Of a stretch of DNA of 64,000 nt, positions 2,075-24,393 are shown one piece after another. The position numbers and the translations under genes are program-made. This stretch comes from Escherichia phage vB_EcoM_G17, in sequence record MK327931.1. One strand, 5' to 3'. The stretch's first letter is position 1. Every line of letters starts with the position of its first letter. The notes under the pieces are model-generated. The model saw only the letters and a program-made list of their open reading frames with translations. It searched no databases and was not told the DNA's origin.

Positions 2075-4864
2075 TTATAAATCACGGAAACGATTTGGTG
2101 TGTTTAAGCGGTACATTGAGTATAATCCCAATCCACGCATAATCTCACCTGCCCAGAAACCAAAAAACATACCATTATCAGTACCTTCTCTAACTGCTGG
2201 ACTCCATGAACCATTCATTGGAGAACCTGGACTTACAATAACATAGTTCTTTTGAAGTTCGAGAACTAAGTTATCAGCGAGTGTTGTTAGACCTTCTATT
2301 TTACATCCAGCCAATCCAGCAGCACAAGCCCCAGCTAACCACAACCCACACATATGACCTGTAAAGTCCCAATCTGGACCTTCAACTGTGCCATCTTTAT
2401 TGAAGATTGTTGGTGAACGACCATCATTATCTTTTTGAAATTGAATTAAAAAGTGAATCCAATTCTCACAAAATTCAACAAGATCTGCTGGTGGTTCAAT
2501 TCCTCTCTCTGCGAGTTCTTGCCATGCTCTGGCAGCCCCAAAGAACGCACGTGGTTCATACCCACTCCATGCTTGATCACCCCAATGTAGCATAGTAAAT
2601 GTATCTGGTTCACCATATTTTAAGTTATCCCAGCGGTTCCAAACATATGCTTGTGCACATGGACCAACAGTACCGAATTGTTGAGTAAACCATGTTTGAG
2701 AATCTTTCATAAAGCTTAACATGTTGCCTAAACGTGTGTTATCAACTGGTTGGTCTTTAAAACAATATATCACAGGATATTGATAACCTGGATACGGTAA
2801 ACCACGCCATCCTGAATACTGGTTCGCATACGGGTCAGTGATGTTAGAAAATGGTATTGTTCCTGGTGTGTAATGCAATGAGTTTAACAAATAATCCTTG
2901 ATTACACAATCCCCTAACTGTGCAGTATATGGTGATTCACCTGCAATTGTTATTGAAAATGTCATAGTATAGTCATCACCGTCAGCATCCGTGTATAATT
3001 CTGGAATGTCATTAATACAATACCAATCAATTATTGCAGCAACACCATCTACTGGGGTTGTATCAGGTAAAATAGTAATATCTTCTAGTTCACTATAAAC
3101 TGGTGCATCTGGTCTTGGGTCAGAACTTGGATGATTTGGCTGATACCCAGATAAACGTAATGTATCGGAACTTAGTGTGATTGTAGTCCATTCCCCGTGT
3201 GTTGCAGGAATCATCCACCACCATCTCCAACCATTATCATCTACAATTCTTATATTGTAATCATCTTCATATGAACGATAGGTAAAAGATTTAACTTCAG
3301 ACTTATTTGTTGCTAATAGCCAAAATCCAATAACAGCACCATCATCTTCACCACAAACTAACTGATTAATGGTATCGCGGCGTGTAACTAATATATCAGT
3401 ACTATATATCATTTCGGACGTAGCTGCACCATAAGGAACAACAATTCTACTATCAGCAATTATATAAGGGGAACCATCTGCTTTCTTTTCTCTAACAAAT
3501 GCACTTAAAGGTGTTAATGAATGTGTGATATTTTGGTCTTTACTTTCCGGTAAGCCACAACGATAACGAACAACATCATGGTCATTTTTTGTTTTTGACA
3601 ATTCCAGTACTGGTTTAAATGATAACGGCTTACCATCATCACATACACCACCATAGTCTACAAGTAATTTAGAATCAGCATTGACCCTGAACCAAATAGC
3701 TTGTTGTTCCATAGTACTTTGTGCACTTTGGTCTTGCCTGATAGTAATATATCCTAGAGAATTTCTACCAAACTTAGCAATAGCATCACTAGGATAAAAA
3801 TATTCATAGGAAATACCATCAGTGAATGGTGTGGTTACAATTGTACTTTGTCTGAAAAATTTATCTCTGGAGTCAATATCACCATAAGCATAACACGTTA
3901 GTAGTGAACATTTCCAACCCAAATAATGTTTTCTTTCTTTTGTTATTTTATATAACAAATAAGAAGCATCACTAAACCATAATTCTGCATCTGATGCGTT
4001 ATCAGCAAATTCCAAATCAATTGGAACATGAAGAGGGCGGTTGTGTTGCATTTCATTTCGTTGAATTATCACACCACCATATTCTACTGGTTGACGATTT
4101 GCAAAATTTAATTTATATACACCATTAATTGTTGTATTCTTTAATTGAACAGTTCCTTTTTCCGATTCGTCAAAACCTTCTGCTAAAATATTACCATCCC
4201 AGTCGATTTTTCTACCCATGAAATCGATAATCCAGTCAACATCATATTGTTCACCTGGTGTATCCCAATCAACACTACCATCTGGTAATAATGCTTTTAC
4301 TGACGCATTTATTTGGTTCCATGCTAAAGCACCTTTGAATGCAAATGTTACTTTATCCAAGAACTGACCATAATAAGGTGCACCATGTGGTATTTTACAT
4401 TGTCCATTTGTAAATGTAAATTCTACACCCTTGAAACCACCATGTGTAGGCCATCCATCATCAGCTAAAGGCCAGTTAGCCAATATAGGTTCTTTGGCAT
4501 TAACTATCCAGTTACATTGTAGTGGTGTAGGTGGATCTGGTAATTCACGTCCAGCATAAAAGTACTGATGATATGCGTCCCAATACCACTTTGCCTTATC
4601 TAAAAACATTGGATCATTTGTTGCCAGATACGCATAAATGTATCCTAAAATTAATAGACTTTGACCTTCTGTTGTCCCGTCACCGTTTGGTTGACCTTCC
4701 ATTGCAGAATAGTTAATAAAATGACGGTTGTTCGCCAAAACACCCTGATTATTCACCACATAATGTTGTACTGTTGGATCTATAGTATCACCAGTATTTC
4801 TTTCAATAAACTTATGATGCCCATAAAGAAGTTGTACTATATTATCAATATTATTGTTTAACAT
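2075..4864 (-). CDS. large Trp-rich protein (929 aa), possibly a virion-associated glycan-binding or glycan-degrading protein (tailspike/depolymerase-like)
   Basis: Uninterrupted 2.8 kb ORF adjacent to tail-fibre module; many aromatic/Trp motifs (WYWDAY, DGWPTHGG, HWGDQAWSGYEP) typical of carbohydrate-active domains; function inferred only. Confidence 0.7.
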   Translation of the reverse strand: MLNNNIDNIVQLLYGHHKFIERNTGDTIDPTVQHYVVNNQGVLANNRHFINYSAMEGQPNGDGTTEGQSLLILGYIYAYLATNDPMFLDKAKWYWDAYHQYFYAGRELPDPPTPLQCNWIVNAKEPILANWPLADDGWPTHGGFKGVEFTFTNGQCKIPHGAPYYGQFLDKVTFAFKGALAWNQINASVKALLPDGSVDWDTPGEQYDVDWIIDFMGRKIDWDGNILAEGFDESEKGTVQLKNTTINGVYKLNFANRQPVEYGGVIIQRNEMQHNRPLHVPIDLEFADNASDAELWFSDASYLLYKITKERKHYLGWKCSLLTCYAYGDIDSRDKFFRQSTIVTTPFTDGISYEYFYPSDAIAKFGRNSLGYITIRQDQSAQSTMEQQAIWFRVNADSKLLVDYGGVCDDGKPLSFKPVLELSKTKNDHDVVRYRCGLPESKDQNITHSLTPLSAFVREKKADGSPYIIADSRIVVPYGAATSEMIYSTDILVTRRDTINQLVCGEDDGAVIGFWLLATNKSEVKSFTYRSYEDDYNIRIVDDNGWRWWWMIPATHGEWTTITLSSDTLRLSGYQPNHPSSDPRPDAPVYSELEDITILPDTTPVDGVAAIIDWYCINDIPELYTDADGDDYTMTFSITIAGESPYTAQLGDCVIKDYLLNSLHYTPGTIPFSNITDPYANQYSGWRGLPYPGYQYPVIYCFKDQPVDNTRLGNMLSFMKDSQTWFTQQFGTVGPCAQAYVWNRWDNLKYGEPDTFTMLHWGDQAWSGYEPRAFFGAARAWQELAERGIEPPADLVEFCENWIHFLIQFQKDNDGRSPTIFNKDGTVEGPDWDFTGHMCGLWLAGACAAGLAGCKIEGLTTLADNLVLELQKNYVIVSPGSPMNGSWSPAVREGTDNGMFFGFWAGEIMRGLGLYSMYRLNTPNRFRDL

Positions 4865-4865
4865 G

Positions 4866-5402
4866 TCATACTCCTGCTCTAATCAATGCACCGTACCATG
4901 TAACTCCTTTATCGTATGTTTCTAATGAAATAATATCTTTTTCACCAATTTCATAAGAAAGAACAACTGGTCTATTATATGACCATTTAACATTAGATCC
5001 CCAATTAACGAGGTTAGACCCTGTTTGCTGAGTTAATAGGATAGTAATTGAATAAACTTCAGTAGGAGCAGCACCAATAGCAATAGTGGTATTTCTGTCA
5101 GATAAATTAATATTAAAAACTGTATTACCTGATAGGGGATTAATTAAAATATTATTAGAACTCAATACATTATATAATTTGTTACTAGCACTATCATACA
5201 ATGTTACCCATTCTGTTTCATGATTCTCATTAGTAGCTTTAGCTTTTATTTTTACATTATTTTCGGAAGAAGTCATTCCAGTCCAGCCAGAAATAATAAA
5301 AGAACTGTTTTTATTTGTTCCAAATGATGCAATTACTGAATCACTAAGAGAACTATCTTCACCGTCAATAGATCCGAGTACTGACAATGTTAAAACCATC
5401 AT
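4866..5402 (-). CDS. hypothetical beta-rich structural-type protein (possibly the 3' part of a frameshifted gene)
   Basis: ORF with Ser/Asn/Thr-rich composition; starts ATGATG inside the end of ORF 5365..5565 in another frame. Confidence 0.5.
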   Translation of the reverse strand: MMVLTLSVLGSIDGEDSSLSDSVIASFGTNKNSSFIISGWTGMTSSENNVKIKAKATNENHETEWVTLYDSASNKLYNVLSSNNILINPLSGNTVFNINLSDRNTTIAIGAAPTEVYSITILLTQQTGSNLVNWGSNVKWSYNRPVVLSYEIGEKDIISLETYDKGVTWYGALIRAGV

Positions 5403-5565
5403 TTTTAATGTCTACACCAGTTGCACCTGAAAAATTATTTTGAAATTTAATAACTCCGGTAGTGTGGATATCTGTGAAAATTTGTTGTGCCATACTTAAT
5501 CCTTGCGTTAATTTATATTGAGTATTTATTGAGTATAATGGCATTTTTAGTACCATTATACTCAT
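5365..5565 (-). CDS. hypothetical protein (possibly the 5' part of a frameshifted gene continuing in 4866..5402)
   Basis: 66-aa ORF whose last 38 nt overlap the start of the next ORF; overlap contains an A-rich AAAAATGATGG stretch. Confidence 0.4.
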   Translation of the reverse strand: MSIMVLKMPLYSINTQYKLTQGLSMAQQIFTDIHTTGVIKFQNNFSGATGVDIKNDGFNIVSTRIY

Positions 5566-5570
5566 GTATG

Positions 5571-6803
5571 TTACTTATACCATTGCATTTCTCTGATATC
5601 AATGATAATTTTTGATGCTAATTTAATGTTTGGTTTTTTGGGAAGTACTGATTTCTTATATAGAACATCACGAATGTATTGTACTTTATCATCGAAATAT
5701 TCTAATACTTCTTCATACTTCCACTTACCATTACGAATATCCATCAACATTTGTGCATCAGGTCGTTTAACTTGAATAATTCCACTCTGTAAAGCTTCTT
5801 CTGCACTATTCAAAAGTCTAATTGTGTGCATAGCATGTTTACAATCGTATCCGTGTTGTGATTCTAAAACAGCACGTTTGGCATTACGATTTTCTTTCCA
5901 TTTATGATAACTTTTCCTATTCTCACTATTCTCCTGATATTCTTTTTCGTTAAATTTTACAATTAGTTCTGGTTTGGTTTTCAACTCTTCAGTACTACGT
6001 TCTTTTGAAAAATAACGCAATGAACCATCATGGTTAATAGTGCTTTCATTAGGATTCTTAACAATCGCAAAAATGTTTTCTCCGTAATGAATTAGTTCAT
6101 AACCATTATTAAAATTCAATAAATTGAAATCACGATCAAGAATTTTTTCAGTAGTGTAGTTATGCACTAATCTTACGAAATGATATTGCTTTAATGGATT
6201 TTTCGAAACTAACTGCAATGATGTATCACGCATATATTTTTCAAAATCAATCTTTTTAGCATTAAATGGATGTAAGTTGGATGTATCTAAACGTTCAACA
6301 AGATACTGTGGGAATGAATCATACATCCACGCAAGAACCTCATCGACAGGGTGTTCTTCTAAAATCTCATTTAATCGTTTTTCAGCAATACGCTCTTTAT
6401 CCATCCAACCGTGATGATTTGTCATACGCTTAATCTGATTATATGCATATCCAGTGTATGAAAATGCAATCTTGGAACTAAGAAGTTTTTGGTTAAATGA
6501 ACGAAGATAGTCATAAATTTCAGTACTTTCCACAATGTGTTCAGGTTCAACCCAAAGTGATTCAAGAATATTAGGGTTAGCTTCAGTGTATAATTTTAAA
6601 TACTGATTCAACTCATAGAATTTAGTATCTTCTTCGCTTTTGTCAGCTACCTCTTTGACCTTATAGAAGGGTGTAAGAATAAATTCTTTATTAGCAAGAA
6701 AAATACCACGATAATCAGTATCACTTTCCGGTGTACTGGTTCCGTAGGCTTGTGACCCAGCCAAGTGTTTCACTATTGTTTGTTCAATATATTGGTTATT
6801 CAT
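5571..6803 (-). CDS. DNA polymerase beta-superfamily nucleotidyltransferase (predicted)
   Basis: N-terminal GSQAYGTSTPESDTDYRG matches the hG[GS]...DxD nucleotidyltransferase signature. Confidence 0.55.
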   Translation of the reverse strand: MNNQYIEQTIVKHLAGSQAYGTSTPESDTDYRGIFLANKEFILTPFYKVKEVADKSEEDTKFYELNQYLKLYTEANPNILESLWVEPEHIVESTEIYDYLRSFNQKLLSSKIAFSYTGYAYNQIKRMTNHHGWMDKERIAEKRLNEILEEHPVDEVLAWMYDSFPQYLVERLDTSNLHPFNAKKIDFEKYMRDTSLQLVSKNPLKQYHFVRLVHNYTTEKILDRDFNLLNFNNGYELIHYGENIFAIVKNPNESTINHDGSLRYFSKERSTEELKTKPELIVKFNEKEYQENSENRKSYHKWKENRNAKRAVLESQHGYDCKHAMHTIRLLNSAEEALQSGIIQVKRPDAQMLMDIRNGKWKYEEVLEYFDDKVQYIRDVLYKKSVLPKKPNIKLASKIIIDIREMQWYK

Positions 6804-7203: not shown

Positions 7204-7713
7204 TTAACCACCATACTTTGACTTGTATGTTTCAAGTGATAAAGATATACGATTTTGCTTTTTAATTCTTTCATCAATATCCTTTGAATTCTTCACACTT
7301 CGGTATACGTCAGCTAATAAATTATAATCTTCTTTATTTGAGCTATGCTGTGTCCAACCTATGTCTGTTTTAATACGAACATTTGCTTTATTTGACGAGT
7401 AAAAGAAACTGAAACCATTTGACCCATCAAAAATATCAAAAGTATCTACCCAATCACCATAAGGAAAACTCATCGGGACTGACTCGTGGTCGATTGTGAT
7501 ATCCGATAAATTTTTTGAACAGTACTTCGCAAAGTGATAAACAATTGGATCACATTTAGATAATTCATATTTGTATTCAATGATAGTTTTTCTATTAGCA
7601 TCATTGATAGCATATTCTTTCATCAATGGGCTTTTTTTGATGATAAGAGTCCACAGAAACGATTCTAATCCGGTTTCATCAACTTTTTGTTTCTTTTTGA
7701 AAAATGAAATCAT
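7204..7713 (-). CDS. hypothetical protein, member of a 3-gene tandem paralog set
   Basis: Shares motif KSPxxK..xxDxxRKxxIExKYxLSK with 7710..8231 and 8238..8804. Confidence 0.55.
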   Translation of the reverse strand: MISFFKKKQKVDETGLESFLWTLIIKKSPLMKEYAINDANRKTIIEYKYELSKCDPIVYHFAKYCSKNLSDITIDHESVPMSFPYGDWVDTFDIFDGSNGFSFFYSSNKANVRIKTDIGWTQHSSNKEDYNLLADVYRSVKNSKDIDERIKKQNRISLSLETYKSKYGG

Positions 7714-8231
7714 TTATATAAACCCTTAATTTTCTGTCTATTATGTATATCATTTTGCTGGATTTTCAATTTAGTAAGGTTGTTTCTTACACCTTCAACT
7801 CCACGCATTATTTGTAACATAATTAGTGATTCGTCATATGTTAGTACATTGCTATTATTATCGATATATACTTTCACTCCACTTTCAAGATAATCATTTT
7901 CTTTGGAGTTAAAGTTTCTAATAGCAAACTTAACGCCATTTGATGTATCACTGAAAACATATCGTTCCGCACCGTAGAATGTTTTTCCACGAAATAAACC
8001 GCCGTCTTCCCACTTCCAACGACTAGATTCATAATCATTAACGTAATCAATGATTAAAGAAAGTAAAGGGTGTTTGCTCAATTTATATTTTGCATCTAAC
8101 AGGATACGTCTATCATTATCTGTGGTGATAATATCCTTTAGTGAGTAGCTTTTAGATATAATTTTAAAGATAATTTCATGCCAAATTAAAGTACTGTTTT
8201 GTTTTCCAACTGATCCAAAAAACATATCCAT
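7710..8231 (-). CDS. hypothetical protein, tandem paralog
   Basis: Paralog motif KSYSLKDIITTDNDRRILLDAKYKLSK; 4-nt overlap with neighbour. Confidence 0.55.
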   Translation of the reverse strand: MDMFFGSVGKQNSTLIWHEIIFKIISKSYSLKDIITTDNDRRILLDAKYKLSKHPLLSLIIDYVNDYESSRWKWEDGGLFRGKTFYGAERYVFSDTSNGVKFAIRNFNSKENDYLESGVKVYIDNNSNVLTYDESLIMLQIMRGVEGVRNNLTKLKIQQNDIHNRQKIKGLYK

Positions 8232-8237
8232 TCCTCA

Positions 8238-8804
8238 TTAGTATAAATCAGTAATGTCTTTGTATGCATTAATCTGTTTTTGTTGTAATGAAAGTTCATT
8301 GAGTTTAGTTACCATTTTATCTACACCAACACGTGTATAGAAAATAATAAATGAATCTAAATTGCCTAGAGTAATTCTTGAACTGAAATTTGAAAGTTTT
8401 CTTGCATAAACATAAATTTCTTCTTCACTTGGTAAACGTTTCTCAATCGGCCAGCTTTCCACACCATTCGGCTCATAATCGATTTCAAATTCAACTCCCA
8501 TCACTGTGTCTTGAATGAGATCCGTATATGAACCACCGTAAAAATACTCTCTTGGTTTGGCTCTCCAACGAGGACTAAATGGGTCAGATGCGTATTCTTT
8601 TACAAATTTGTAAAAGGACATTTTACTGAGCATATACTTCATCTCAATTAGTGCTTTGCGGTCATCATCAGTTTTAAACTCTGCTTTGAGCGATGGACTT
8701 TTACACAGTAACTTAACTAAATTGATGTACATCTTTAATGTACGTTGTTCTTTCATTTCTTTGATTTTGTGACGTTTTGGTGGCGGTAATAAAGATTTGA
8801 CCAT
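8238..8804 (-). CDS. hypothetical protein, tandem paralog
   Basis: Paralog motif KSPSLKAEFKTDDDRKALIEMKYMLSK. Confidence 0.55.
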   Translation of the reverse strand: MVKSLLPPPKRHKIKEMKEQRTLKMYINLVKLLCKSPSLKAEFKTDDDRKALIEMKYMLSKMSFYKFVKEYASDPFSPRWRAKPREYFYGGSYTDLIQDTVMGVEFEIDYEPNGVESWPIEKRLPSEEEIYVYARKLSNFSSRITLGNLDSFIIFYTRVGVDKMVTKLNELSLQQKQINAYKDITDLY

Positions 8805-8836
8805 AATTTCCTCCTATTTTTATTCAATTATACACA

Positions 8837-8867
8837 TAAAAGAAAAGCCCGTCAATAGACGAGCTTT
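8837..8867 (-). terminator. terminator-like hairpin after tail-fibre genes (imperfect)
   Basis: Stem AAAGCCCGTC/GACGAGCTTT with one mismatch, followed on minus strand by a U-rich tract. Confidence 0.35.
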
Positions 8868-8871
8868 AAAT

Positions 8872-11601
8872 TTATTTCCAACGTGTACCTGGACCTGATG
8901 GTACACCAGTACTGGCAGGTATCGCTGAACCACGTTTCGTTGTACTTGGACGATATGTCAAAAAACGAGTTACTTTTTCTGTATCAATTGAAGTTATTCC
9001 TGAAGTTCCAGTAACTATCTTACCAATGTAAGTGCTAGTTAAAGATTCATCAATTGTTTCAGTACTAATAACATATGACGCTTTCTTAGTATTCCTGTTC
9101 ATTTGTATATACAAATAGAACGTAGTATTAGCTGGGTTACTTTTTACAGTACTTAAATCAACACTTTGTATAGGTAGTCTGTCGAAAATTCCACCTAAAA
9201 ACACCGGAACTTCACGTGTAAAGTACACTGAGAATCCTTGTGCAACGTCTTGTGATACTACCACAATCTTTTCTTTAACGCTACCATTTCCACTAATTAA
9301 ACCATCCATTTCAGCAGATGTTGTACCAAAAACGCTGAATACAGATTTGGTTTGATAGTCAGAATCTTGAAAATTGTAATATCCAAAACCAACACCAGGA
9401 ATAACACCATGTTGATATGCTGCACCAAGTTGGATGTAACTAGATGATAAAAAACGATTTGATGTTATGACACCATCTACTGTTTTAGCTATCATCATCT
9501 TAAATTGTGCATTACCTGGTTGTGAAAATTGATGAACAGCATCAACACCAATGTAACCAAATCCTGAATATTTTGCAACTGTTAGACCAGTACAACGTTT
9601 CATATATGCTTCAGTAATAATTCCTGTAACAGAACTAAGTGTCTCATATCTAGTACTTACCAATGTAGCTGAAGTTATGTTAGATCCAGATAATACAACA
9701 TCAACTTCGGCATAGATTGCATAACCTTGGTTATTGTTAAGATTATATGCTGAAACTACTGCAATGGATTTAGAAAAAGTATTATCAGGTACATAATATA
9801 ATACAATTTGTCCAGATAGTGTACCAACAATGCCAGAGTTTCCTAGATTAGCAAAAATATCTTGTTTTAATGATTCTAATACCGTTGGTTCTATTGTATA
9901 TGTTTCATCAAATTCTAAAGTATCTGGGTTTAATAATCCACCACTTGTTTTATATACACCTTCAATGAATGATGTTCCATAACATCTAACACTACCATCG
10001 GTATCAACAAGAGAAATCATAGCAGTGTATGTAAAATCATCACCTATTTGTTTACGATTAGATTGTGGTGCAAAACCATTTAATGTAGTATTATTTTGAA
10101 CTGAGTTATATTGATATGTTGGTTGTGAGCCTATTTCAGAAAAAACAGTATTATTATAATTATATGTTACATCATCATACGTACCAGAACATGCTAATAA
10201 TATTTTTCTATTATCGATGAAACGTACACCTAATAGGTTTGCACCAACAGCACTACCAAAAACTGGTAAAACGTTTGCATTTATAACGTTACTTGCGGAT
10301 CTAGTACTAGCAACCCATGAATCAAACGGTGTACCACTAACCTTATATCGTTGTAGACCATAAAATTCAGTTGAACTCCATCTAAATTTAGATGCAAATA
10401 CTAAACCATCTTTGGTTTGACATAAACCACCTGCGTTTCCTAATACACCAGCAGCAGTTGTCCCAGTAAAGTTGACCATATTGATTTCAAATGGGTTAGA
10501 AACTTGAAATCCATTATCATATGAAACTGTAGCAGGAGCACGAGCAGAACCATCTAGTGACATAGATTTTGAGTTTATATTATAAACAAAACTGATACCA
10601 GTACCATACACTGTTGAAATATATAAAGGTGTAACCATTCTATGGGTTGGGTATAAAGTTACACGTATTTTGGATAAATCAGTACTAACGTTTGCTTGTA
10701 TATTAAAGTCTGTATAATCCGAAAATTCTACACGTGAGACTGGTGATGTAACTTCGAATAATGAATCCGAGCTAGTACCAACACTATATAATCTATCAAA
10801 CACTCTTATGTTATTAGATGCAGAATAACTTGTATTTCGAACAGTTTGCCCTGATAATCCAGTAACTTTTGTTAATGATGCCATTGAGCTTGCTTTCACA
10901 TCACTTAGCTCTACTGTATAAATTGAAAGTGCTAATCCTAAATTAGAAACACTTTTATCTTTACACCAAATATATACTTTTGTTCCAACAATATGAGTAT
11001 ATATAGGCATATCATTACCAAAAGAAGTACTTGGTACTTTAGCATGAATATGTGATACTTCGTTGAATGTACCATTAGTTATAGTAAAAATATAATTATC
11101 TTCTGTACTTAAACATCCAAGCATTTCATAACCATTAGAGCCAATAAAATACTTAATATTCTCTGTACTACTCATAATTGAAGGTTTATACATTGAATTG
11201 GTTGAAATAACACTTTCTTGTGAAATCATGGTTATATTTCTGATTTCTCGTATAAATGAATAATAAAAACCTTTAGTACTACCATTGGTTCCGCTACGCA
11301 GAACAACGGCGGTTCCATCATCTTCAATAATTGTTGGCTGAACTACTTGGTCACTTGACATAGGTGTAGCACCTTCATACGACCCACTTACGTTTAATGG
11401 CAAGTAATCCATTTCTCCTACACGTGATATAGGCAACATATCTAAAATACTTTGAACTTCTGAACGCTTATATATTGGATATTGAACAATTCCAGTATTG
11501 GCATTCGGTGAGGTTCCATTAAAAGTACGCATAGCGTACCTTTGTCCAATTGCCAAGTTCCCAAGGATCTCGGCACTTCCTATAATTCGTTTTGATGACA
11601 T
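8872..11601 (-). CDS. tail fibre / receptor-binding protein, paralog 1
   Basis: About 910 aa, Ser/Thr/Gly/Asn-rich; N-terminus (PISxxGxxxYLPxxVSG) and C-terminal ~70 aa (VxRFxTYRPSxTxxGSxxPxSTGxPSxxGT) shared with 12217..14913; start set at Met31 of track ORF (AAGGA SD, 16 nt after upstream stop). Confidence 0.7.
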   Translation of the reverse strand: MSSKRIIGSAEILGNLAIGQRYAMRTFNGTSPNANTGIVQYPIYKRSEVQSILDMLPISRVGEMDYLPLNVSGSYEGATPMSSDQVVQPTIIEDDGTAVVLRSGTNGSTKGFYYSFIREIRNITMISQESVISTNSMYKPSIMSSTENIKYFIGSNGYEMLGCLSTEDNYIFTITNGTFNEVSHIHAKVPSTSFGNDMPIYTHIVGTKVYIWCKDKSVSNLGLALSIYTVELSDVKASSMASLTKVTGLSGQTVRNTSYSASNNIRVFDRLYSVGTSSDSLFEVTSPVSRVEFSDYTDFNIQANVSTDLSKIRVTLYPTHRMVTPLYISTVYGTGISFVYNINSKSMSLDGSARAPATVSYDNGFQVSNPFEINMVNFTGTTAAGVLGNAGGLCQTKDGLVFASKFRWSSTEFYGLQRYKVSGTPFDSWVASTRSASNVINANVLPVFGSAVGANLLGVRFIDNRKILLACSGTYDDVTYNYNNTVFSEIGSQPTYQYNSVQNNTTLNGFAPQSNRKQIGDDFTYTAMISLVDTDGSVRCYGTSFIEGVYKTSGGLLNPDTLEFDETYTIEPTVLESLKQDIFANLGNSGIVGTLSGQIVLYYVPDNTFSKSIAVVSAYNLNNNQGYAIYAEVDVVLSGSNITSATLVSTRYETLSSVTGIITEAYMKRCTGLTVAKYSGFGYIGVDAVHQFSQPGNAQFKMMIAKTVDGVITSNRFLSSSYIQLGAAYQHGVIPGVGFGYYNFQDSDYQTKSVFSVFGTTSAEMDGLISGNGSVKEKIVVVSQDVAQGFSVYFTREVPVFLGGIFDRLPIQSVDLSTVKSNPANTTFYLYIQMNRNTKKASYVISTETIDESLTSTYIGKIVTGTSGITSIDTEKVTRFLTYRPSTTKRGSAIPASTGVPSGPGTRWK

Positions 11602-11617
11602 CTTTCTTTTCCTTAAT

Positions 11618-12205
11618 TTACCAACCAATTGTACCAGTTTCTGATGGTTTTCCAGTACTGACTGGGAATGAAGAACCTTTTTGTGTAACACTAGGTCTAT
11701 ATGTACTAAATCTGGATACTTTATTAATGTTTATATTTGTAATACCACTTGTACCAACGGTCAGTGTTCCAATAAACATTATAATTTCAGATTCTTGTAT
11801 TTGTGTTGGTGATATTTTATAAATTGGTTCACCGAGAACTAACGTTGCATATACATATTGTGTTTGTGTTCCAGATGAAACAGTTGAAGCAAAAATAGAA
11901 ACTGCTGGAAATTTATAAAGATAACCACCAATAAATGATGGTATCTGTCTATTAAATGTAAGACTATAGCCTGATGAAGTAATATTTAGACTAGCGTCAT
12001 CATACAATTCTCCGTATTGTGTAAGTGGTAATCCATTGACAATAAAGTTAACTTCATCTTTGGTAATAGAGGGGAATGTACATTCCCCATTTGAATTTGT
12101 TGGGTAATAAGTCATATTATTACCTAATACACCAAGTCCAGTACTTTTACCCTGTACTGTAACTTGTTGCATTGCCTTAAGGTCTGCTCTTATTTTAAAT
12201 GCCAT
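11618..12205 (-). CDS. short tail-fibre-related protein sharing the conserved C-terminal domain
   Basis: 195 aa; C-terminus KVSRFSTYRPSVTQKGSSFPVSTGKPSETGTIGW aligns with the C-termini of both long fibre proteins. Confidence 0.6.
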   Translation of the reverse strand: MAFKIRADLKAMQQVTVQGKSTGLGVLGNNMTYYPTNSNGECTFPSITKDEVNFIVNGLPLTQYGELYDDASLNITSSGYSLTFNRQIPSFIGGYLYKFPAVSIFASTVSSGTQTQYVYATLVLGEPIYKISPTQIQESEIIMFIGTLTVGTSGITNININKVSRFSTYRPSVTQKGSSFPVSTGKPSETGTIGW

Positions 12206-12216
12206 TATGTAATCCT

Positions 12217-14913
12217 TTACCAGTTTATGGTTCCTGTTTGTGATGGTAGACCGTAGCTAACTGGGAACGATGAACCTGCTGATTCAAGTGAAGCACCAAA
12301 TATATCTAAACGTGAACGTTTTTGTATATTAATAGTTTCGATTTGAATTGCGTTAGTTTGAATAGTACCTATCCAAAAAATATTATATGCAGTTGTTCCT
12401 GTTTCGGAAATAACATCAGTAGTTATGTAGTAGTTTGCCAACCCTTGTTCTAATTTAACATATACATAAAATGTTGTATTTGCTGGATTAGATTTTATAG
12501 TTCTCAAATCAATATTTGAAACTGGTAGTGTAAAAGACTTACCTGATAGTATAACTGGTGTTTCCTCTGTAAAATAAACAATAAACCCTTGAGCAACGTC
12601 TTGTGATACTACGTTAATTGGGCTACCTTGTGGAGTCCAGTTATTATAGTCGGCTATCGTTGTTCCATATTTTTGAAATGACATTTTATTTGTATAATCC
12701 AGTGGATCAAAAATACCAAATCCAATACCAGGCAACGCAGTGGGTTGTCTTCCTTGTTCATAACTGGCATGAGAACCAGTAATAACAAAACTTGTAAATT
12801 GTGCAGTTGATTTAGTTACATATGCTCTAAATTGATGAGTTGCTGTATTTCCTATTGTTGGATGTGTTAATGGGTCAGAACCACCAATGAAGTAGAATGA
12901 ACCACCATCATAAATTGTTAACCCAACAGAAGAAGATGCAATCGAACCATTACCATTAGGTGTAAAGTTTTCACCATATGTATTTTCTAGTACTAAACGC
13001 TTAAAGGTAATAGATGTTATATTTCCAACTCTAGTATTAACGTTAACTTCAGCAATTCTAATATAGTTTTTATAGTCATTTGTTATAGTACTCAACATAA
13101 CAAAAGCCGGAATGTCAGTTTGTTGTGGAACAAATAATGTCATATCACGATAAGCTTGTGAAGATAAGTTCCAGTCACTTAGAACTTTAGCATATTCTGT
13201 ATTTCTAAAGTTATCTAGAACTGATTGTGTAACACTAATAACACCAGTACCATTTAAGTTTTTATCATATGAAAATGATTGTGAATAACGTTGACCAACC
13301 ATAAAAATACCGCCATTAGTTGTTACAGTTGAACCTGAAATACTACTAATGAAAATTCTATTATTGGCATTATCATCTACATAACCACGTTCAGTTGTAG
13401 GTTCATAACCTTGTATGGTTCCTAAAGATAATGATTTAAATGTAAAATTAGGAGTACTTTTATGAACTGCATATGATGGTCTAAACCCACCACTACCAGA
13501 CGCACGTGAATATTGTTTAGTACTATTATCTGGTAACAACTCCACACCATTAATAAATGAACCAACTGCTGAACCAAAGGATGGTCTAACAACTCCACCT
13601 TTAAAATCAGTTGATTGTACTGCACGAACGTTAATCATACTATAAACAATTTGTATAGGAAACTTTGCTTTTTGCATAAGTAATGGTTCTGCTAAGTTTG
13701 GACACACAGTACAAAAAGCTTCACCTGAACTTAAGTAAAAATAAGAACTATAAATGTTTCTTGCATTAGCATGATTATATAATGGATCATTATTTAAAAC
13801 GTTACCTGTAGGCACTAATGCAGAACCAGTATTGGTTATAACCAATGGTGCTTGATATGAACCTATGTCATTCCCAGCGTCTAGGGTGCATTGTTTAGTA
13901 CTCATATTAAATGCAAAGCTGTAGCTATGTTGTGGTCGGGCATTATATGTCGCCATTGTAAACCATGCATCACCATTCATTCTAAAACGAAAGTTCTGTG
14001 TTCCTGGTTGCTGTGCAACATACAAATCAATGGATGTCATATAAATCCCAATACCACGTAGGTTTTGTGGTACATACACATAAGGCTTATCTGCTATATT
14101 AGTTGAAGTTACTTGATTAGTAATAACCATGTTATTCTGTGCAGAATAAGTTGTATTATAGAATGTTTTTGTAGTCCATCCTGTAATACGAGTTGCCGTA
14201 TATGTTCCATTGCTAATATTATATACAACTCGGACAACAACTAACTGTAGTTGGTTATTTTCATTAAGAACACTAAAGACATAGATTGAACCATCTTCAG
14301 CCATCATTGCAAATTCTATACCACCTTCAGGGCAAATATCTGCTTGATTTACAAAAAAACCAGTATGTAATTTATCATCTAATGTACCATTAGTAATAGA
14401 AATAAACAATCCATTAGTACTGTTAGAAGTGTCTACATATCTACCGAGTAAAATATTTGGATCAGTATTGTATAAGCCAATTGCGACGCGATTTGAACCG
14501 AAAAAACCAGGCTTGTATTGACGACTGGTGTTAATTGTACGGCTCATGTCATCAACTGATAATGCGTTAGCCAAATATGAATAATATAATCCCTCAACAC
14601 TACCGTTTGTACCACTACGTAATAATACGAGTGTACCATCGTTTTCTAATAAAATTTTATTTCTACGTTGGGACTGGTTTTCAGATGCACCATTGAAATC
14701 ACCAGATACACCAGCAGGAAGATAGTTTTGTGACCCATAATGGGAAATTGGCATCATACTGACGATATCTAGTACTTCATCTCTTGAATAAGTATCTAGC
14801 TCCATATTGCCATTAGCATCAAATACTTGATCATTGATACCTTGTATTGTTCTTTTACCATTAACTGTCACATTATGTGTGACATCCAAGCCACCATATA
14901 TTTTCTTTGACAT
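12217..14913 (-). CDS. tail fibre / receptor-binding protein, paralog 2
   Basis: 898 aa; same composition and shared termini as paralog 1; AAGGGA SD upstream; TATAAATA motif 35 nt upstream. Confidence 0.7.
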   Translation of the reverse strand: MSKKIYGGLDVTHNVTVNGKRTIQGINDQVFDANGNMELDTYSRDEVLDIVSMMPISHYGSQNYLPAGVSGDFNGASENQSQRRNKILLENDGTLVLLRSGTNGSVEGLYYSYLANALSVDDMSRTINTSRQYKPGFFGSNRVAIGLYNTDPNILLGRYVDTSNSTNGLFISITNGTLDDKLHTGFFVNQADICPEGGIEFAMMAEDGSIYVFSVLNENNQLQLVVVRVVYNISNGTYTATRITGWTTKTFYNTTYSAQNNMVITNQVTSTNIADKPYVYVPQNLRGIGIYMTSIDLYVAQQPGTQNFRFRMNGDAWFTMATYNARPQHSYSFAFNMSTKQCTLDAGNDIGSYQAPLVITNTGSALVPTGNVLNNDPLYNHANARNIYSSYFYLSSGEAFCTVCPNLAEPLLMQKAKFPIQIVYSMINVRAVQSTDFKGGVVRPSFGSAVGSFINGVELLPDNSTKQYSRASGSGGFRPSYAVHKSTPNFTFKSLSLGTIQGYEPTTERGYVDDNANNRIFISSISGSTVTTNGGIFMVGQRYSQSFSYDKNLNGTGVISVTQSVLDNFRNTEYAKVLSDWNLSSQAYRDMTLFVPQQTDIPAFVMLSTITNDYKNYIRIAEVNVNTRVGNITSITFKRLVLENTYGENFTPNGNGSIASSSVGLTIYDGGSFYFIGGSDPLTHPTIGNTATHQFRAYVTKSTAQFTSFVITGSHASYEQGRQPTALPGIGFGIFDPLDYTNKMSFQKYGTTIADYNNWTPQGSPINVVSQDVAQGFIVYFTEETPVILSGKSFTLPVSNIDLRTIKSNPANTTFYVYVKLEQGLANYYITTDVISETGTTAYNIFWIGTIQTNAIQIETINIQKRSRLDIFGASLESAGSSFPVSYGLPSQTGTINW

Positions 14914-14947
14914 TATATATCCCTTATAAATTAGATATTAGTTAATG

Positions 14948-14955
14948 TATTTATA
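14948..14955 (-). promoter_or_regulatory. T4-type late-promoter-like TATAAATA element upstream of the tail-fibre operon
   Basis: Exact TATAAATA on coding strand about 35 nt upstream of the start at 14913, just after the nrdG terminator; only clear copy seen in the window. Confidence 0.4.
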
Positions 14956-14960
14956 TACAT

Positions 14961-14986
14961 AACAAAAAAGCACCCAATGGGTGCTT
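14961..14986 (-). terminator. rho-independent terminator after nrdG
   Basis: Stem AAGCACCCA/TGGGTGCTT (14968-14986) followed on minus strand by a T-rich run. Confidence 0.55.
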
Positions 14987-14989
14987 ATG

Positions 14990-15460
14990 TTAAAAATCTT
15001 TATTTTTATATAGTATTCTTTGATTATTTGAACCACGGAAAGGTAATTTTAAATTCTTTTCGGACTCGATAAACTTACCATCAACTAATACATCTAAGTA
15101 CTGAAGTATATCTTTAGCATGATTTTTCATAATCTCATCTAAAGTATACCCACTCCAGCACCAAATAGTTTTACTAGGATAAGTTTCTTTAACTACTTTG
15201 CATAGATTTAAAACTTCATCTATATTCTTTTTCATTAATGGATCGCCGCCTAGAAGTGACAAACCACTAACATATGGTTTTTTTAGTTCCTGTAGTATAA
15301 TCTCAACTGTTTCAGTACTGAACTCTTGTCCACTTCGGTAGTCCCATGCTTCTTCATTGAAGCAACCATCACATCCGTGCGAACACCCACTAACAAATAA
15401 AGAGCAGCGAACGCCCTCTCCATTTACTAAATCATCCTTGATTATCGTCTGGTAATTCAT
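14990..15460 (-). CDS. nrdG: anaerobic ribonucleoside-triphosphate reductase activating protein (radical SAM)
   Basis: Collinear with E. coli/T4 NrdG as recalled: VNGEGVRCSLFVSGCSHGCDGCFN, LSLLGGDPL, WCWSGYTLDE, VLVDGKF. Confidence 0.9.
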   Translation of the reverse strand: MNYQTIIKDDLVNGEGVRCSLFVSGCSHGCDGCFNEEAWDYRSGQEFSTETVEIILQELKKPYVSGLSLLGGDPLMKKNIDEVLNLCKVVKETYPSKTIWCWSGYTLDEIMKNHAKDILQYLDVLVDGKFIESEKNLKLPFRGSNNQRILYKNKDF

Positions 15461-24289: not shown

Positions 24290-24393
24290 CGAAAAACTGA
24301 AATAACACATGGAGTTCTTTTTAATTTAATAAAAAGTATTATTATTCTTATAAAAGTATTTATTAAGAACTCCACAATATGTCTTCAAATGAA

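Follow-up and report, generated by a model that had tools for sequence, protein, structure and literature searches.

What do three adjacent, related genes on one strand of a phage genome encode when every one of them carries an empty label? The sequence considered here, a window of 64,000 nucleotides (nt) from Escherichia phage vB_EcoM_G17 (MK327931.1), holds between positions 8872 and 14913 three open reading frames (ORFs), here called A, B and C, for which the public annotation is 'hypothetical protein' in every case. The 6-kb region that contains them matches Escherichia phage Sharanji (OR545507.1, Asteriusvirus, 350 kb; window position 1 is position 271631 of that record) at 100% identity; with 121Q identity is 99.8%, and with the PBECO4/phAPEC6 group about 94.5%. 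On balance, we read A, B and C as a late-transcribed operon of virion proteins from an uncharacterised family, in which the end modules would serve docking and the bodies would bind the host surface. The genes and their segments, in amino acids (aa), are as follows.

12217-14913, minus strand: gene A (Sharanji gp459), 898 aa
14689-14913: N-module of A, aa 1-75
12595-14688: predicted β-propeller-type body of A, aa ~76-773
12316-12594: shoulder-like β-sandwich of A, aa 774-866
12220-12315: conserved tail of A, aa 867-898
11618-12205, minus strand: gene B (gp458), 195 aa, without a body
11981-12205: N-module of B, aa 1-75
11726-11980: shoulder-like β-sandwich of B, aa 76-160
11621-11725: conserved tail of B, aa 161-195
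8872-11601, minus strand: gene C (gp457), 909 aa from the ATG at 11601
11368-11601: N-module of C, aa 1-78
9244-11367: body of C, aa 79-786
8980-9243: shoulder-like β-sandwich of C, aa 787-874
8875-8979: tail of C, aa 875-909

The ATG at 11601 was taken as the start of C; it has an AAGGAA ribosome-binding site and is the GenBank start. A 939-aa form beginning with a GTG at 11691 is an ORF-finder extension that runs into B and was rejected. Many records, e.g., 121Q_501 and PBECO4 gp071, annotate C as an 886-aa protein starting at Met24. These starts are probably wrong, since in the 909-aa form homology to A and to gp149 of Pectobacterium phage CBB is present from residue 2-3 onwards.

The three proteins are paralogues. 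BLASTP aligned A with C over the full length at 27% identity (E 2e-61), residues 77-195 of B with the C-terminus of C at 43% over 120 aa (E 7e-24), and B with the C-terminus of A at 36% over 125 aa (E 1e-16). At the other end, residues 1-75 of B matched residues 1-74 of A at 33% identity (E 7e-7). Identity between A and C was 46% at residues 51-100, 14-28% in the middle and 48-54% at residues 751-850. Against 2000 composition-preserving shuffles per segment, z values were 8-17 for the last 35 aa, 9-30 for the β-sandwich ahead of the tail and 7-22 for the N-terminal 75 aa, and in no segment did any of the 2000 shuffles reach the observed score. Low-complexity Ser/Thr/Gly bias is thereby ruled out as the source of the C-terminal similarity. 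No further copy of the family was found in the window.

The original prediction, made from the sequence of this stretch, had described three proteins with a common C-terminal module, and the BLASTP and shuffle results confirm this, although the module is larger than the ~70 aa then proposed: it covers ~120 aa, a folded domain of ~90 aa followed by a motif of ~33 aa. It had also stated that A and C share their ends and differ in the middle. The ends are indeed conserved, but the middles are homologous though divergent, not unrelated inserts. The short ORF had been seen as an otherwise different carrier of the module; B has the N-terminal ~70 aa as well and is the body-deleted orthologue of a full-length paralogue. 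The earlier interpretation is thus partly supported, apart from its fibre, cleaved-chaperone and cassette-switching elements, which are taken up below.

Searches of Pfam gave no family for A, B or C at E values up to 1 apart from noise, and NCBIfam gave no match. In PHROGs, A and C match phrog_3573 over their full length (E 1e-274 and 2e-266), B matches phrog_26864 (E 4e-115, a full-length hidden Markov model match), and all three proteins each match part of the 1714-aa phrog_7449. The three PHROGs are all labelled 'unknown function' and come without a structure or name, so that membership adds no mechanism.

More can be learned from predicted structures. The AlphaFold2 model of A, based on 46 aligned homologues, had a mean predicted local distance difference test score (pLDDT) of 86 and a predicted template modelling score (pTM) of 0.79. 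Residues ~60-770 were all-β and a separate β-domain was formed by residues 775-865, with residues 1-55 and 869-898 below pLDDT 50. The model of B was confident only at residues ~70-160 (pLDDT 84-94), and the last 33 residues, where the motif noted in the original prediction lies, scored ~30. In the predicted structure, the β-sandwich of the C-terminal module (C-module) is superposable on the shoulder domain of the p2 receptor-binding protein (RBP). Its fold matches are exclusively phage or type VI secretion system (T6SS) baseplate-anchoring domains: the shoulder domain relatives are the p2 RBP (PDB 2wzp/ORF18), the TssK N-domain, SPP1 gp22, the phage 1358 RBP and cyanophage A-1(L) gp34 (8kec), and matches also include the HFTV1 fibre gp42, a phi812 baseplate protein, IglD and Mtd. 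The fold is similar to that of the shoulder/TssK systems, but identity is only 7-14% and there is no detectable sequence homology. In agreement with this, searches of PDB sequences with single sequences and profiles of A, B and C gave nothing significant; the sole lead was PHIKZ049, with a non-significant E value of 0.48 against the C-module profile.

In the p2 RBP, TssK and the long tail fibre of A-1(L), the shoulder domain is trimeric and anchors receptor-binding proteins or fibres to baseplates. It is N-terminal in all known cases, with the binding head after it, whereas in A, B and C it is C-terminal and, in A and C, follows the body. This C-terminal placement of a shoulder-type anchoring domain is unusual.

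For full-length A, Foldseek against the PDB returned generic propellers only, with TM scores of ~0.15, which indicates a fold class and no specific relative. The body fold matches are mostly lectins and glycosidases, and the neighbours include GH43, GH130, sialidases and ulvan lyases. The name 'fibre' used in the original prediction does not suit such proteins, as the predicted bodies are globular all-β propeller-type domains and not fibrous repeats. A likeness exists to phiKZ gp131-gp135, likewise a set of jumbo-phage paralogues that combine conserved modules for attachment with a binding body of the propeller type. These proteins have a common N-terminal attachment domain and differing C-terminal domains, including a seven-bladed propeller, and form hetero-hexameric fibres (PMC13250141), a precedent for hetero-oligomeric fibres made from paralogues. 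The conserved module of these phiKZ proteins is an N-terminal helical bundle, however, whereas that of A, B and C is a C-terminal shoulder-type sandwich. No significant homology of A, B or C was found to the gp131 N-domain, its propeller or any other phiKZ PDB chain, and phiKZ was not among the tblastn matches listed (60 of 172 and 60 of 110).

These features suggest how the proteins may work. Each chain has an N-module of ~70 aa, a C-terminal β-sandwich of the shoulder fold and a conserved tail of ~33 aa that probably becomes ordered only in an oligomer or on a partner. The β-propeller-type bodies of ~700 aa in A and C would be the likely host-surface binding parts, with glycans or lipopolysaccharide (LPS) as targets. 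B may have been kept because its end modules are still needed in assembly. In the simplest arrangement, the three chains would assemble together or fill equivalent docking sites on the periphery of the tail or baseplate.

The origin of B becomes clear from comparison with phage CBB, which has three long paralogues of 902, 916 and 916 aa at the equivalent site after nrdG and a small ORF. Reciprocal comparison gave 1:1 orthology of A with CBB gp147 (46% identity), of B with gp148 (45%) and of C with gp149 (35.5%). B aligns with gp148 in two blocks, residues 1-67 on 1-67 and residues 79-195 on 798-916. The long-long-long arrangement of CBB also occurs in Kaldavass and Yersinia phage fHe-Yen9-04, and a long-short-long arrangement occurs in Sharanji, phAPEC6, UE-S1, WPEC5, A4 and Salmonella phage PHA46. 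The distribution of the two arrangements indicates that ~730 aa, exactly the body and at domain boundaries, was lost from B on the Asteriusvirus side. The 1:1 orthologues occur in fixed order in at least four phage groups (Asteriusvirus, Mimasvirus, Eneladusvirus and Kaldavass).

The shortened protein has been maintained. The length of B stays at 195-202 aa from 100% down to 45% identity, and its ratio of nonsynonymous to synonymous substitution rates (dN/dS) is 0.13 against UE-S1 and 0.23 against WPEC5, similar to the values of A (0.08-0.12) and C (0.13-0.21); B is under purifying selection. Of the three, C evolves fastest, with a dN/dS of 0.25 in the body and 0.07-0.08 at the ends. A fast body on slow ends is what one would expect if a binding domain were carried by a conserved anchor.

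The limits of the transcription unit are given by three signals around the genes.

14968-14986, minus strand: hairpin of an intrinsic terminator (AAGCACCC-loop-GGGTGCTT, then a T-run) at the end of the nrdG unit, shortly before A
14948-14955, minus strand: TATAAATA, a late promoter motif of the T4 type, 35 nt ahead of the A ATG
8844-8867, minus strand: hairpin of an intrinsic terminator (10-bp stem, then a T-run) immediately behind the C stop codon, closing the A-B-C unit

The gaps within the unit are 11 nt (A-B) and 16 nt (B-C), and each holds a ribosome-binding site. The genes are accordingly predicted to form one operon between two terminators. The upstream hairpin is kept in nine phages and is labelled as a terminator in UE-S1. 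The order of terminator, (T)ATAAATACA, ~28 nt, AGGGAT and ATG is likewise kept in nine phages from at least three genera plus unclassified ones, and (T)ATAAATACA is found at the promoter position in Asteriusvirus, CBB, Kaldavass and Yen9-04. In the window, TATAAATA occurs at 2 sites against 13.3 ± 3.4 expected (~7-fold depleted) and ATAAATA at 5 sites against 45 ± 7 expected (~9-fold depleted). Depletion of this kind is typical of a motif in use as a signal. The coding-strand copies, at 5523, 14948 and 24357, are all intergenic, and two of them lie ahead of tail-related units; the copy at 5523 is upstream of a unit with PHROG labels 'tail fiber protein' and 'tail protein'. The copy at 24357 has a 62-aa ORF on one side and, on the other, a 185-aa basic protein downstream of PhoH. 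Matches to σ70-type promoters were no commoner in the region than in shuffled sequence. For phage CBB, ATAAATA has been reported ahead of structural genes, as has a sigma factor resembling gp55 (PMC5259590). Together with this report, the conserved and depleted TATAAATA motif makes late expression of A-B-C a well-supported prediction.

Late expression would fit virion proteins, and A, B and C are probably virion-associated proteins that resemble RBPs. The A orthologue of phAPEC6, gp323c (96% identical, 98.6 kDa), appears in the published virion list obtained by electrospray ionisation tandem mass spectrometry (ESI-MS/MS), with 4 peptides and 5.6% coverage, and is therefore probably virion-associated. 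The orthologues of C (3004-5730, 99% identical) and B (5750-6334, 99.5%) are intact in phAPEC6 (MK817115.1) but missing from its annotation, so they were not identifiable in that virion proteome. The only annotation in the B-C stretch of phAPEC6 is a spurious 37-aa ORF (gp322c). Elsewhere among phages, homologues often bear the label of a virion structural, tail or minor tail protein.

The genomic context also points to the virion surface. In phage RaK2 (NC_019526.1), a tailspike/tail-fibre cluster of ten genes, ORF525-534 (322571-345682), directly follows nrdG and a small ORF, and no homologue of A, B or C was found in the 46-kb terminal region of RaK2. The tailspike clusters of the Alcyoneusvirus phages RaK2, K64-1 and φKp24, which are multi-gene host-recognition sets, lie at the equivalent site downstream of nrdD-nrdG and a small ORF. 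Because the RaK2 cluster occupies the syntenic site, the slot after nrdG looks like a replaceable host-recognition locus of Rak2-like phages. The proteins themselves differ: the RaK2 tailspikes are podovirus-like (record annotations, PMC3622015), not of the propeller-plus-shoulder type, and are unrelated in sequence to A, B and C. EJP2, a relative with the long-short-long arrangement, uses LPS as receptor. In more distant phages, family members adjoin a baseplate gene (an EL-like phage), a PAAR protein (a 258-kb metagenomic phage) or a fibre gene, the last in Goslar, where the long member gp26 adjoins the Peptidase_S74 fibre gp25, lacks S74 itself and is accompanied by a short member, gp28.

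The family is widespread among large phages. A tblastn search with C matched 172 phage records, and every record among the matches listed was at least 209 kb long; the matches included Rak2-like phages, chimalliviruses (Goslar, RAY/Ea35-70, RisingSun, SPN3US and EL) and the Aeromonas D3, N1M2 and Miami groups. Among 1.84 billion proteins, the B-family profile detected 537 cluster representatives (50% identity). The best 150 of these comprised ~89 with a body, 15 of the B type (N-module plus C-module, 190-237 aa) and ~45 other short forms with the C-module, so that bodyless forms make up ~40%; in the same 150, sandwich and tail nearly always occurred together at the C-terminal end. In chimalliviruses the C-module is not always terminal, and the Goslar members have no conserved tail. 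SPN3US (NC_027402.1, 145536-150719) carries the N-proximal region and the C-module inside a 1727-aa protein, with the module at about aa 1318-1423 and ~300 residues after it.

In several lineages the family members stand in adjacent sets of three, which differ in the order of long and short forms.

Long-long-long: CBB, GAP32, Kaldavass, Yen9-04
Long-short-long: Asteriusvirus
Medium (420 aa)-long-long: RAY gp18-20
Long-short-short, twice: contig L013 (JGI Ga0247734_1000011, the 258-kb metagenomic phage)
Short-long-short: contig L019 (a 205-kb phage)
Short-short-long: Goslar gp28/gp27/gp26, in which gp27 shares only the N-terminus with gp28 (E 6e-5)

In L013 (4400-14458), the unit is a tandem duplicate, each copy with one long protein (959 or 981 aa), two short ones (233 and 238 aa, or 233 and 244 aa) and an unrelated protein of ~210 aa, and the duplication is flanked by a PAAR-motif gene on one side and a GH19 gene on the other. 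Only two members each were detected in the EL-like phage and N1M2, with a weak third candidate in the EL-like phage. Alignment of neighbouring proteins as possible third members with hhalign (Goslar gp27, the 247-aa and 956-aa proteins of GXNNA8, and N1M2 gp115) was negative or only suggestive (E 0.11-0.7).

The trimerising function of the shoulder fold, combined with adjacent sets of three, suggests three-chain complexes with one to three heads. Tentatively, then, members of the family may be obligate heterotrimers or other three-chain complexes held together by three paralogous C-terminal shoulder modules, with an evolvable number of headed chains. Such complexes would also explain the retention of B. 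We know of no phage for which an RBP of inverted polarity, with a C-terminal anchor and a variable number of heads, has been described.

Several points weigh against receptor-binding virion proteins. The phAPEC6 list that contains gp323c, with its thin coverage, also holds thymidylate synthase, RecA and PhoH, and since these are obvious non-structural proteins we consider the mass spectrometry (MS) support moderate. The MS table of CBB does not contain gp147-149. The label 'structural protein' in CBB stems from homology to RaK2/GAP32 proteome data and does not stand for MS detection in CBB. The Goslar cryo-electron microscopy (cryo-EM) paper could not assign the peripheral baseplate or fibres, gp26 was not found in its supplements, and none of the family members has been matched to cryo-EM density. 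Goslar's DUF7941 'fiber cloud' proteins form a separate family, to which gp26 does not belong. Finally, the body of A is strongly conserved (dN/dS 0.08-0.11), and no glycan-binding or catalytic motif was identified.

The last two points would suit proteins that decorate or scaffold the periphery of the tail or baseplate, for example as the bases of 'hairy' whiskers, with bodies made for protein-protein contacts. The virions of phAPEC6 and CBB bear unassigned whiskers and capsid fibres, and the outer baseplate of phiKZ is made of many scaffold proteins. However, the family also occurs in GAP32 and in chimalliviruses, where whiskers are not reported, and the C body evolves three times faster than the ends, as in receptor-binding proteins. 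With the RaK2 tailspike cluster at the same site and body folds that match mostly lectins and glycosidases, we consider a purely structural role unlikely, although it is the best of the alternatives.

The enzyme-like neighbours of the body fold would also be compatible with late soluble enzymes, i.e., propeller-fold glycosidases or lyases that act on envelope or exopolysaccharide at lysis, in which case the MS detection of gp323c would be carry-over, as for the clear non-structural contaminants in the same low-coverage list. Against this, the C-module fold matches only phage or T6SS baseplate-anchoring domains. Furthermore, bodyless B, Goslar gp28 and the short forms of L013 and L019 are conserved though unable to be enzymes, and in other lineages the genes adjoin those for PAAR, baseplate and tail-fibre proteins. 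This explanation appears quite improbable.

Even less credible is the cassette system for host-range switching of the original prediction, in which middles would be exchanged on constant ends and the shared C-terminus would be recombination homology or a cleaved intramolecular chaperone. Conserved ends with more variable middles would fit it, and the genes disagree in their divergence (in B the closer phage is UE-S1, in C it is WPEC5), which suggests some recombination between phages. However, the middles align over their full length, and comparison across related phages showed that they diverge gradually and are not swapped. The 6.4-kb region contains neither a DNA repeat exceeding 70 nt at 70% identity nor an invertase-type inverted-repeat pair; a search of 8700-15100 for repeats of the invertase type or of diversity-generating retroelements gave only short, low-identity repeats. 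Neither an invertase nor a reverse transcriptase was present among the ORFs examined in the flanking few kilobases, and all three genes lie on one strand with 1:1 orthology in fixed order. The chaperone variant fares no better: Pfam and NCBIfam detected no Peptidase_S74 (PF13884) at the C-terminus of A, B or C, no other Pfam family matched, and the tail is a non-helical segment of 33 aa. Least tenable is a decaying, functionless B, for which the ~730 aa missing relative to CBB and the lack of a gene call in phAPEC6 could be cited, but which is contradicted by the intact and length-conserved frame, the dN/dS values, the gene's own ribosome-binding site and tight packing in the operon, and a deletion exactly at domain boundaries with short forms recurring in other lineages.

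Some neighbouring genes deserve mention. Just downstream of the A-B-C terminator lie three paralogous ORFs on the minus strand (8238-8804, 7710-8231 and 7204-7713; 188, 173 and 169 aa). They belong to phrog_18641/phrog_7868 (unknown function), with three copies in A4 and PHA46 and one in CBB, and might either help to assemble A, B and C or be unrelated to them. The terminator upstream of them is overlapped by a near-consensus σ70-like promoter (TTGACG-17-TATAAT, 8855-8827). Further along the minus strand, the PHROG 'tail fiber protein' gene is seemingly split into a 42-aa ORF (5365-5493) and a 178-aa ORF (4866-5402), which together correspond to a single 209-aa ORF in phage A4 (A4_503). The 42-aa ORF has an ATG at 5493 with a good ribosome-binding site; the ATAAATA at 5523 lies 30 nt ahead of it. 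By size and position this ORF fits phAPEC6 gp315c (4.66 kDa, between gp314c and gp316c), which was found in virions with 69% coverage. The split is either a frameshift, due to a sequencing error or programmed, or reflects two real products. The following 929-aa ORF (2075-4864, minus strand) matches phrog_2871 'tail protein' and no Pfam family; judged by size and position only, unaligned, it probably corresponds to phAPEC6 gp314c (a 105-kDa 'tail fiber protein' with 8 virion MS peptides). It makes up a second late unit related to the virion, surrounded by genes of nucleotide metabolism.

Few proteins have been assigned to host recognition in Rak2-like and many chimallivirus jumbo phages, and A, B and C provide a concrete candidate set of three genes with a domain map, an anchoring module and a late promoter. 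This is relevant for phages under development against E. coli and Salmonella. The C-module profile, with its 537 representatives and no Pfam entry, is a usable marker for such loci in metagenomic jumbo phages. If the family indeed forms heterotrimers with one to three heads, receptor-binding proteins could be built and could evolve in a manner that is new, and the persistence of bodyless paralogues would be explained.

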